Source: a virus (taxonomy: Duplodnaviria > Caudoviricetes). Taken from it: a DNA stretch of 64,000 bases. The position numbers were made by a program, and so were the translations under genes. Shown here one piece after another: positions 13,864 through 56,832 of the stretch. The stretch lies in IMG/VR virus record IMGVR_UViG_3300046694_000619; one strand, 5' to 3'. The notes beneath the pieces were generated by a model that searched no databases, was not told the origin of the DNA, and saw only the letters and a list, made by a program, of their open reading frames with translations. Positions within the stretch are counted from its first letter, which is position 1. Each line of letters starts with the position of its first letter.

Positions 13864-13939
13864 GTGCGCTTCGTCTAGTGGCCCAGGACCCCGTCTAACA
13901 AGGCGGGAGACACAGGTTCGAATCCTGTAGCGCGCTCCA
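13864..13939 (+). tRNA. tRNA with Glu-like body and a non-7-nt anticodon loop (identity undetermined)
   Basis: D arm GTCTAGTGGCCCAGGAC; arm CCCGTCTAACAAGGCGGG folds to a 6- or 8-nt loop; CCA. Confidence 0.7.
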
Positions 13940-14233: not shown

Positions 14234-14779
14234 ATGTTGACGTGCGTGAATTATAGGCCCGGCTTCGTGGCCAATCCGAATCCGATTTTCGATGCGCTGT
14301 GGTCCGAGCTGGACTGGGAGCGCAGAGGCTCGACGCCCAGGCGTGAGTATTACTGCAACGACGTCGGCGTGCCGTATGTCTATGGCCGCGGCGCCGGCGT
14401 ACGGGAATACCTGCCCAAGGCCATGCATCCCGCCCTGGCTGCCCTGAAAGGCGAGACGGAAGCCGCACTGAGCACCAAGTTCGAAGTGGCCTTTCTGAAC
14501 GGCTACGAGGACGCCCGCGACAGCTTGGGCTGGCACGCGGATGACAGCGAGTCGATGGATGACAATCGTCCCATCGCCATCCTGACGCTGGGCGCGGAAC
14601 GCGAAATCTGGTTCTGCCGCAACACCGACCGCTCCGACATCACGAAGCTGGTGCTGGGCAACGGCAGCCTGTGCGTCATGGCGCCGGGCATGCAAGATAC
14701 CCACCTGCACAGAATCCCCAAGGCGGGGTTCGAGTGCGGCCCGCGTATCAGTATTACATTCAGGGGTTACGTAGCGTAG
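14234..14779 (+). CDS. alkB: AlkB-family 2OG-Fe(II) dioxygenase (ALKBH2/3-like)
   Basis: LNGYEDARDSLGWHADD (HxD), H.IPK, RISITFR. Confidence 0.88.
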   Translation: MLTCVNYRPGFVANPNPIFDALWSELDWERRGSTPRREYYCNDVGVPYVYGRGAGVREYLPKAMHPALAALKGETEAALSTKFEVAFLNGYEDARDSLGWHADDSESMDDNRPIAILTLGAEREIWFCRNTDRSDITKLVLGNGSLCVMAPGMQDTHLHRIPKAGFECGPRISITFRGYVA

Positions 14780-15493: not shown

Positions 15494-15510
15494 CCTTCCG
15501 GAGCTTGTCT

Positions 15511-15837
15511 ATGGTCGCGTATCCCGTGAACTACACAGACGAGCAGCTTGGAAAAGCCTACGCGGCCGGGATGCTGCGAAAGACCAAGCTTGAGGATGGC
15601 CGCTATTACAGAGGCGAATGTCGAAACGCGAGCGTCGCGCGCTGGTGCGCCGAACTGCAAGCATTCGTGCACTGGACCTTCACGATGGGCGGCTGGCATC
15701 TGGACCTCATCCATCATCCCGACGACGAGAAACGGTATGACGTGTTTCTCGCGTTCGAACGCGTTGAACCTTCCGCAGACGACGTCATCGCTGACGCCGA
15801 ATACGAAGGGTTCGTCGCGATGTATCGCAAACAATGA
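15511..15837 (+). CDS. hypothetical protein (phage-like)
   Basis: GGAG RBS; LEDGRYYRGECRNASVARW. Confidence 0.7.
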   Translation: MVAYPVNYTDEQLGKAYAAGMLRKTKLEDGRYYRGECRNASVARWCAELQAFVHWTFTMGGWHLDLIHHPDDEKRYDVFLAFERVEPSADDVIADAEYEGFVAMYRKQ

Positions 15838-15848
15838 GACTGCAGCGG

Positions 15849-15925
15849 GGTGGCCGTCGCCAAGTGGTTAAGGCCCGCGGCTGTGACCCGCGCATGCATG
15901 GGTTCAAATCCCATCGGTCACCCCA
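15849..15925 (+). tRNA. tRNA-His(GTG)
   Basis: G-1:C73, CT GTG AC, CCA. Confidence 0.92.
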
Positions 15926-15988
15926 CTGCAGTCTCGGACAAAACGTTTTTTCAGTCAGGTTTTTCAATCAACCAACAGGAGCTTCGAT

Positions 15989-16240
15989 ATGCATCGAAAA
16001 CCGAAGCTGGCGCCGCGTAACCCGTTCGTGGCGTCCAGTCTGTTTCGCAAAGCGGGTACGCATGACAAGCCGCACAAGGCCACGCGCCGTGCGGACAAGA
16101 TGGACTTACGGCGTGTAGCTCAACTGGCAGAGCAAAGGGCTTTTACCCCTGAGGTTCTGGGTTCAACTCCCAGTGCGCCGACCATCCGAGACATCAAACA
16201 CATACCGATGTGCAGCAGCATTGCGCAGCTATCTGTTTGA
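15989..16240 (+). CDS. small basic protein whose frame runs through tRNA-Lys
   Basis: AGGAG RBS; 40 K/R/H-rich codons, then the tRNA begins exactly at codon 41. Confidence 0.6.
   Translation: MHRKPKLAPRNPFVASSLFRKAGTHDKPHKATRRADKMDLRRVAQLAEQRAFTPEVLGSTPSAPTIRDIKHIPMCSSIAQLSV
16109..16184 (+). tRNA. tRNA-Lys(TTT)
   Basis: CT TTT AC, CCA. Confidence 0.85.
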
Positions 16241-19004: not shown

Positions 19005-19089
19005 GCTCCGAATGGCGGAATTGGTTAGACGCCTTGGTCGTACCAGGGACCGCAAGGTCGTGTGGGTTCGAATCCCGCTTCGGGCACCA
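19005..19089 (+). ncRNA. tRNA-Leu-like RNA lacking an anticodon loop
   Basis: Leu D arm, V arm, A73 and CCA present; anticodon arm is CTTGGT-CGT-ACCAGG. Confidence 0.75.
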
Positions 19090-56153: not shown

Positions 56154-56832
56154 ATGAAACTGACGCTTGAAATCCATCCCGCAGAAGGCGGCGATGACGC
56201 AAAGCTGCTGGTCCATGACCAGGCAGCAATCTACACCCGCTTTGCCGCCCGCAACGGCCTGAAGGCACATGTGGAGGCACGGGGCTACCTTTGACCTCGT
56301 TTTCATTGAAGGCCCCGAGGAGCTGCTGAAGCCCCTCATTCAAGAAGCCGGAGGCCACCGCCACATGCGCGTGCCGCCCACCGAGCGCAAAGGACGCGTG
56401 CACACGAGCACCGTCACTGTCGCAGTGTTCGAAGGTCACTTCGAGCCACAGCAAGCGACGTCAATCCATCCGAATGACATCCATGAGCGCGTTACGCGCG
56501 GAACTGGCGCGGGTGGACAAAATCGCAATAAACGTGAAACTGTCATTGTGCTAACGCATCGCCCCACCGGCATCGAGGTGAAGGCCGAGGCGGAGCGCAC
56601 GCAGGAAGCCAATCGACGCGTCGCCACCGCCACGCTACTTGAGCGGGTGCAGGCGCACTACGCTGGCGCGGCGCAGAACGCCGTCAACCAGCAGCGCAAG
56701 TCGCATGTCGGCACGGGCCAACGCGGCGACAAGGTACGGACCTACCGCGCCGACGGCGTCACGGACCACCGCACTAGCCGGCGCGCGCCGCTCGCATATG
56801 TGCAGGCGGGCAAGCTTGAGCTGTTGCGGTAA
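56154..56832 (+). CDS. peptide chain release factor-like protein with a +1 programmed frameshift at 56289-56295
   Basis: ORF0 MKLTLEIHPAEGGDDAKL...RGYL-TGA; +1 frame has EAGGHR..RVPPTE..GRVHTS, GAGGQ, ERTQ..N, RGDKVRTY. Confidence 0.88.

Follow-up and report, generated by a model that had tools for sequence, protein, structure and literature searches.

ArfA is the RF2-dependent alternative ribosome-rescue factor of Escherichia coli, Neisseria, and other bacteria. Its gene, like brfA, is expressed from non-stop mRNAs, which for arfA arise through an RNase III hairpin or an internal terminator, and tmRNA tags and removes the products of both genes unless trans-translation is short; this mode of regulation is so far known for rescue factors only (PMC6299226, PMC11633108). 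BrfA of Bacillus subtilis is a short basic peptide that lets RF2 free the chains held on non-stop ribosomes, and ArfT of Francisella tularensis, also a short basic peptide, fulfills the same task with RF1 or RF2 (PMC6299226, PMC11633108). Among betaproteobacteria, ArfA was reported in 37 of 1000, and, by our own reading of the counts, both ArfA and ArfB are missing from roughly a quarter to a third of the genomes (PMC11633108). Given that ArfA is rare and that many genomes are devoid of both factors, the back-up of trans-translation in betaproteobacteria is partly unexplained.

RNase P processing of tRNA 5' ends is fast and universal, and the cuts made by RNase P in mitochondrial tRNA punctuation and in MALAT1/mascRNA provide known 3' ends of mRNAs and other RNAs. 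We know of no earlier bacterial case in which the 5' maturation of a tRNA makes a regulatory non-stop mRNA, and a full-text search of the literature found no bacterial non-stop mRNA made by RNase P. In human mitochondria, messages without a complete stop codon do occur (PMC9674279). Ribosome rescue has also been connected to RNA repair: PrfH frees damaged ribosomes, after which RtcB2 religates the 16S rRNA (PMC9304027, PMC6514570).

Here, we analyze a small gene lacking its own stop codon that abuts a tRNA-Lys(UUU) gene in a 64,000-nt stretch of DNA, referred to below, at its full length, as the window. We assign the gene to a family of peptides found in betaproteobacteria and their plasmids.

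RESULTS

A peptide gene without a stop codon between two tRNA genes

The + strand of the window carries 52 tRNA genes (ARAGORN), the G+C content is 58-62%, and a TrwB-type conjugative coupling protein is encoded. Together with an RF1-like short release factor described below, the + strand tRNAs and the coupling protein fit a large conjugative plasmid-like element. With megablast, the region under study had no match among phages and only a 63-nt tRNA-like match among plasmids. Two tRNAs of the window, at 13864-13939 and 19006-19089, have four-base anticodons (aaca, acca) according to ARAGORN; they may have odd anticodon loops or may be frameshift-suppressor-like tRNAs. The tRNA array also contains a gene at 14234-14779 whose product belongs to the 2OG-Fe(II) oxygenase superfamily (PF13532, AlkB-type family) and is possibly a nucleic-acid demethylase encoded among tRNAs. 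A 110-aa protein encoded at 15505-15837, beside the peptide ORF, has no relatives in genome, viral, and plasmid collections.

The peptide gene is directly preceded by a tRNA-His(GUG) gene (15850-15925, + strand), which is called by ARAGORN and by the Rfam tRNA model. A Shine-Dalgarno sequence, AGGAG (15977-15981, + strand, read from the sequence), stands 7 nt ahead of an ATG at 15989, from which 40 codons for a very basic peptide extend to 16108 on the + strand without a stop codon of their own; six of them are Lys codons. The gene of tRNA-Lys(UUU), with its CCA encoded, occupies 16109-16184 (+ strand; ARAGORN), and positions 1-71 of the Rfam tRNA model align to 16109-16181 with 60.4 bits. Since ARAGORN and the Rfam model agree, codon 41 begins on nucleotide 1 of tRNA-Lys (16109), and the RNase P site of this tRNA is predicted to coincide with the end of codon 40. 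The first in-frame stop, a TGA, is located at 16238-16240 (+ strand), 54 nt 3' of tRNA-Lys. The original prediction, made from the DNA letters only, was correct in each detail of this layout, namely, the AGGAG, the 40 codons, the start of codon 41 on the first nucleotide of tRNA-Lys, and the stop at 16238.

On the other side of the gene, 3' maturation of tRNA-His(GUG) would determine where the peptide message begins. tRNA-His is flanked by a 10-nt inverted repeat, GAGACTGCAG / CTGCAGTCTC, at 15836-15845 and 15926-15935, whose pairing would prolong the acceptor stem as a long duplex of leader and trailer. This duplex could serve in processing and, in doing so, define the 5' end of the message.

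The ORF is a conserved protein-coding gene

Taken alone, the length of the ORF and its Shine-Dalgarno sequence are unremarkable in DNA of 59% G+C, since the surrounding 4.5 kb contains 65 ORFs of at least 30 aa; our verdict that the gene is real is therefore founded on conservation and not on ORF length. A word-index protein search with the 40-mer returned no match, and phmmer, run exhaustively over 1.84 billion cluster representatives (E ≤ 1e-3), returned 168 that match the window peptide, all through the first ~40 residues only. These relatives range from 44 to 183 aa in total length, and their tails are unrelated to one another, many of them being the tRNA-Lys gene translated in one of three frames. 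An alignment of 51 sequences (A1) has the consensus MKxKxxxAPRNPxVAxALFRKAGxHxKPxKAxRRxxK, in which R10, N11, G23, H25, and R33 are invariant. From this alignment, AF2 predicts two helices, at residues 12-18 and 29-39, flanking the conserved RKAGxH loop (mean pLDDT 77).

By tblastn, the same peptide was found on plasmid pM7012 of Burkholderia sp. M701 and on a plasmid of Pandoraea pnomenusa, and both of these Burkholderiaceae copies sit immediately 5' of tRNA-Lys(UUU). They differ from each other by seven synonymous third-position changes, three replacements, and one single-base deletion at the extreme end of the ORF. Across 25 distinct tRNA-linked ORFs, the differences at codon positions 1, 2, and 3 number 2984, 2408, and 6169, respectively, and pN/pS is 0.35-0.40. 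The AGGAG is found again, in similar surroundings, in the relatives at loci L003 and L005, which have ~63% protein identity to the query alignment. The 168 clusters and the coding-type pattern of substitution rule out a chance ORF and uphold the earlier view of the ORF as a true gene, one that encodes a protein and is subject to purifying selection. A structured-RNA reading of the ORF is ruled out as well, because the RNA of the spacer and ORF folds no better than shuffled sequences (z = -0.15) and matches no Rfam family, as expected of an mRNA.

The same data bear on the idea that the ORF is a cis-acting leader, rich in Lys codons, that tunes the processing or yield of tRNA-Lys while the peptide itself is functionless. 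Such a leader would suit the constant pairing of the ORF with tRNA-Lys(UUU) and the presence of six Lys codons, but it would not account for an amino acid sequence that is conserved beyond its codon content, with the invariant R, N, G, H, and R residues and the pN/pS of 0.35-0.4, nor for chromosomal relatives that lie far from any tRNA-Lys. The spacer has no alternative RNA structure, and the ORF displays neither the free peptide sequence nor the alternative RNA pairings that characterize leader attenuators. We hold a cis-acting leader to be highly improbable.

The family is unannotated and is not related in sequence to ArfA

The peptide corresponds to no named family in Pfam, NCBIfam, or the PDB. 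The window peptide had no match in Pfam or NCBIfam at E ≤ 10, the peptide profile had none among PDB chains at the same threshold, and in the ESM Atlas the peptide matched unnamed hypothetical clusters only. Family members that are annotated in public records are labelled hypothetical proteins, and a full-text search of the literature found no description of the family or of an rtcB-linked small peptide. The family consists of unannotated basic peptides of 40-65 residues.

The original prediction had also perceived a loose resemblance to ArfA, a claim that failed when profiles were compared. The Pfam ArfA profile (PF03889), which recovered ArfA in E. coli and Neisseria-type genomes as a positive control, matched none of the 51 relatives even at E ≤ 10. 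Comparison of A1 with an ArfA alignment (A3) by hhalign gave a probability of 1% (P 0.055) over just nine columns, FVASSLFRK in the family versus LVKSDLFRH in ArfA. The KGKGSY motif, invariant in A3, is absent, the nearest comparable place in A1 being R-K-A-G-x-H. By sequence, these results rule out membership in the ArfA family, and what the two share is limited to layout and composition.

No tRNA-linked relative has a stop codon ahead of tRNA-Lys(UUU)

We gathered DNA loci independently of gene calls from 2 plasmids, 7 genomes, and 45 metagenome contigs and complemented them with 1 IMG/VR contig, which is listed as viral and carries one relative, and with 30 chromosomal loci from the genome survey presented below. 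The tRNA-linked set comprises 33 loci, the window included, and 25 distinct ORFs; as many metagenome loci are near-identical, the independent lineages are fewer than this count of loci. A stop codon ahead of tRNA-Lys(UUU) was found in 0 of the 33 loci, a positive outcome of the check that the original prediction had proposed for homologs preceding tRNAs. The tRNA starts 90-104 nt past the invariant Arg codon, leaving 3-7 codons between it and the last conserved residue, and the first stop of the ORFs is scattered from 36 to 138 codons past this Arg, in or beyond the tRNA.

The 5'-flanking tRNA differs by locus (His, Ala, Phe, Ser, or Met), whereas the 3'-flanking one is always Lys(UUU), so that the peptide gene and tRNA-Lys move as one unit. 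The start of tRNA-Lys falls in phase 0 in 8 of the distinct ORFs, in phase 1 in 15, and in phase 2 in 2. The exact codon boundary emphasized in the original prediction, although present in the window, thus belongs to that copy and is not conserved in the family. At locus L003 (1625-1700), the anticodon loop of tRNA-Lys is altered compared to that at L005 (1625-1700), and ARAGORN no longer calls a tRNA there; the peptide ORF of L003 is intact despite this change.

Different devices replace the stop codon in different lineages

In nine chromosomal loci, an intrinsic terminator composed of a GC stem and a U-run lies inside the ORF, well 5' of the stop. In one example, GGGCGGGATGATTTCCCGCC is followed by TTTTTT, and the in-frame translation yields the pseudo-motif GRDDFPPF; a canonical Neisseria arfA that we read has the same device, a GC stem and ATTTTT ~45 nt ahead of its stop, with a similar PPF translation. 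Hairpins of 20-27 bp are present within the ORF at five other loci (L004, L007, L018, L033, and L037), and in one subfamily (L006, L025, and L028) the ORF passes a conserved hairpin and continues into tRNA-Pro or tRNA-Phe. In chromosomes of Gallionella type, a tRNA-Arg(CCU) gene faces the peptide ORF, whose frame closes in the antisense of the tRNA, a layout that is kept in five loci (L008, 1489-1693; L021; L045; L049; and L052). We rely here on the terminators of the nine loci, which were checked by hand, and on the long hairpins listed above, automatic classing of hairpins in 100-nt windows being unreliable in such G+C-rich DNA.

Many chromosomal relatives therefore meet a hairpin or a terminator before their stop, an outcome that the original prediction had proposed to look for in the case of terminators, and the stop gives way, depending on the lineage, to unrelated devices (a tRNA, a long hairpin, or an internal terminator). 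As read from the sequence, the gene layout of the arfA/brfA type, predicted to yield a non-stop message, is present in the window, in the tRNA-linked loci (33 in all), and in the relatives with a hairpin or an internal terminator. Stop-less expression does not extend to every member, since about 15 of the 30 chromosomal homologs reach an ordinary stop ahead of any strong structure; these stops are found 38-49 codons past the invariant Arg and are followed by a terminator. The Chitiniphilus gene of L061 (WP_018748280.1) exemplifies the form that contains a stop. Normal stops in homologs had been named in the original prediction as an observation that would speak against it, and they do occur in about half of the chromosomal copies but in none of the 33 tRNA-linked ones.

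These ordinary stops lend weight to another account, according to which the peptide is an ordinary small protein whose stop drifted into or past the next tRNA in compact arrays, with no gating by tmRNA. Translation would then end on the unprocessed precursor, and the products would bear harmless junk tails. With only 3-7 codons available before the tRNA, the absence of a stop could easily be due to chance in one lineage, yet 0 of the 25 distinct tRNA-linked ORFs retain one, and the position of the stop is unconstrained over the range of 36 to 138 codons past the invariant Arg. Stop drift also fits poorly with the internal terminators, long hairpins, and antisense tRNA that yield the same outcome in other lineages and with the speed and universality of tRNA 5' processing by RNase P, and we judge it quite improbable. 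Altogether, we are highly confident that the peptide gene is real and that its stop-less layout has been selected.

Distribution of the family and of ArfA and ArfB

We surveyed 401 genomes that evenly sample one GTDB order of betaproteobacterial type, which includes Neisseria, Chitiniphilus, and Pseudothauera genomes. The peptide family is present in 66 of them, nearly always as a single copy. Pfam ArfA was detected in only 3 of the 401, and these do not overlap with the carriers of the peptide family. ArfB was detected in 243 of the 401 genomes, corresponding to 34 of the 66 peptide carriers versus 209 of the 335 non-carriers. In terms of complementarity between the peptide family and ArfB, this amounts to a weak, nonsignificant deficit (chi-square ~2.7, hand count over the 401 genomes).

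Chromosomal copies are often linked to rtcB

Pfam scans and tblastn searches of the flanks revealed rtcB upstream of the peptide gene, on the same strand, in 11 of the 30 chromosomal loci, with a gap of 12 nt in L069; of the nine loci with an internal terminator, six have this link to rtcB. The flanks beyond the pair, compared over 13 kb in each of four genomes, have nothing in common, so that rtcB and the peptide gene stand as a two-gene unit. RtcB homologs are also encoded at most 2 kb from the peptide in two tRNA-array loci, L003 and L048. For the other 19 chromosomal loci, rtcB is absent within 1.5 kb, and tblastn detected no RtcB in the window; adjacency to rtcB is a property of the family that the window copy does not share.

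Other neighbors were noted in chromosomes. At L066 (506-1477) and L061 (512-1486), both of Chitiniphilus type, a gene for a 324-aa protein with no Pfam match is inserted between rtcB and the peptide gene, and remnants of this protein are found at L064. At L070, L072, L074, L076, L079, and L086, the peptide gene lies 3' of a gene for a ~470-aa AAA_2 ATPase, on the same strand, which is HslU-like by domain content.

The link to rtcB opens an alternative in which the peptide takes part in RNA repair with RtcB and not in release-factor-dependent rescue. As a basic cofactor that binds RNA or the ribosome, it could, for example, hand broken tRNA or rRNA over to RtcB; otherwise, its role could relate to the damage that anticodon nucleases inflict on tRNA-Lys(UUU). 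The lack of a stop would then do no more than sense translation stress. The mobile copies are invariably associated with tRNA-Lys(UUU), the tRNA classically targeted by the anticodon nuclease PrrC. A repair function would further agree with the position of rtcB directly upstream in 11 of the 30 chromosomal loci while the flanks change, with the RtcB homologs at L003 and L048, and with the lack of a sequence link between the peptide and ArfA. It is harder to reconcile with the window, which has no RtcB, with the 19 chromosomal loci in which rtcB is absent within 1.5 kb, and with the restriction of known non-stop mRNA regulation to rescue factors (PMC6299226, PMC11633108). Moreover, repair and rescue overlap as explanations, as exemplified by PrfH-RtcB2 (PMC9304027). 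We consider it unlikely that the peptide acts in RNA repair in place of release-factor-dependent rescue.

Release factors as possible partners

The original prediction had named host RF2 or a factor encoded at 56154 in the window as possible partners of the peptide. The gene at 56154-56832 encodes an RF1-like short release factor without domain 1 and contains a CTT TGA C site, at which a +1 shift is needed after codon 46; by NCBIfam, the protein is closest to RF1 and not to PrfH or ArfB. No homolog was found on pM7012 or on the Pandoraea plasmid, both of which carry the peptide-tRNA-Lys unit. An obligatory pairing of the peptide with this factor is therefore unsupported, the factor being in addition RF1-like and not a PrfH. 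Among five RF2 genes that we read in carrier genomes, two (L098 and L100, the RF2 genes of G365 and G166) are single open frames without the usual CTT TGA C site. The 40-residue peptide contains no release-factor domain detectable with Pfam or NCBIfam, and, as it has no catalytic domain, a separate release factor would be needed for peptide release.

DISCUSSION

Our working model is that the peptide is a rescue-type factor whose message is truncated by the maturation of the neighboring tRNA. The tRNA array would be transcribed as a long precursor, which RNase P would cleave at 16108/16109, at nucleotide 1 of tRNA-Lys(UUU), and the upstream piece would be an mRNA that ends at codon 40, hence a non-stop mRNA. 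Ribosomes translating this piece would stall at its 3' end. As long as tmRNA-SmpB capacity is to spare, the peptide would be tagged and degraded, and when trans-translation is saturated or damaged, untagged peptide would build up. It would then act on stalled ribosomes in the manner of ArfA, BrfA, and ArfT, its basic part probably entering the empty mRNA channel, and would help a release factor to free the nascent chain. In chromosomes, this rescue function would be coupled to RNA repair by RtcB. The 52 tRNAs and the RF1-like short release factor borne by the element also speak for this model.

We infer the cut by RNase P, the translation of the cleaved piece, and the tagging by tmRNA from the established biology of RNase P and trans-translation, and the binding to the ribosome and the help given to a release factor are proposed from the behavior of the known rescue peptides. 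The TGA at 16238-16240 would be reachable solely on the unprocessed precursor; a ribosome engaged on that precursor could read through to this stop, which counts against gating. Considered as a whole, the chain leading from an RNase P-made non-stop message to a tmRNA-gated, ArfA-like rescue-type peptide is our preferred explanation, and a tentative one that we would accept almost as readily as we would doubt it. A more ambitious proposal is that the family represents the fourth independently evolved family of release-factor-dependent rescue peptides and the main ArfA-type back-up of betaproteobacteria, their plasmids, and phages, gated by tmRNA through interchangeable devices, uniquely including RNase P, and wired to RtcB; we regard this proposal as possible but rather doubtful.

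If the tmRNA-gated reading is true, the form that abuts a tRNA would be the first known bacterial regulatory non-stop mRNA generated by tRNA 5' maturation, and large tRNA-array plasmids, and perhaps phages, would carry their own ribosome-rescue tool. The peptide gene, present in 66 of the 401 genomes nearly always as a single copy, with repeated loss of its stop and often located behind rtcB, is a candidate for the missing back-up of betaproteobacterial trans-translation. As trans-translation and its back-ups are antibiotic targets, an unrecognized back-up would matter for target validation in Burkholderia-type bacteria.

Several known systems share part of these features. In mitochondrial tRNA punctuation and in MALAT1/mascRNA, a tRNA or tRNA-like fold lets RNase P set the 3' end of the upstream RNA, as we propose for the window. 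However, these systems are eukaryotic or organellar, and polyadenylation restores the missing stop, or its absence is an accident, so that it constitutes no regulatory device. PrfH-RtcB2 associates a rescue component with an RNA ligase in a two-gene unit of sporadic distribution (PMC9304027, PMC6514570), much as our family pairs rtcB with the peptide gene. PrfH is a GGQ-bearing release-factor homolog of ~200 residues, whereas the window peptide has no catalytic domain.

BrfA and ArfT are independent inventions, which we liken to the window peptide by description and not by sequence. ArfT has 40 residues, exactly the length of the window peptide, but it is not gated by a non-stop mRNA as we propose for the latter, and neither BrfA nor ArfT is tied to a tRNA or to rtcB, unlike the peptide family. 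The closest parallel in layout is ArfA (YhdL, PF03889), which is also small and very basic and in which, as in the peptide family, a conserved part is followed by a message-truncating RNA structure with no usable stop. The internal terminator of Neisseria arfA, a GC stem with a U-run, has the same build as those of our nine chromosomal relatives, and ArfA too has members with ordinary stops, such as the ArfA of L091, which ends right after 38 residues. The peptide family differs in two respects: no arfA gene has been described as truncated by RNase P at a tRNA, and the rtcB link of the family is new relative to ArfA. By this analogy, the novelty would lie in the control logic of arfA and brfA operating in an unrelated peptide family, with a tRNA as the truncating device.
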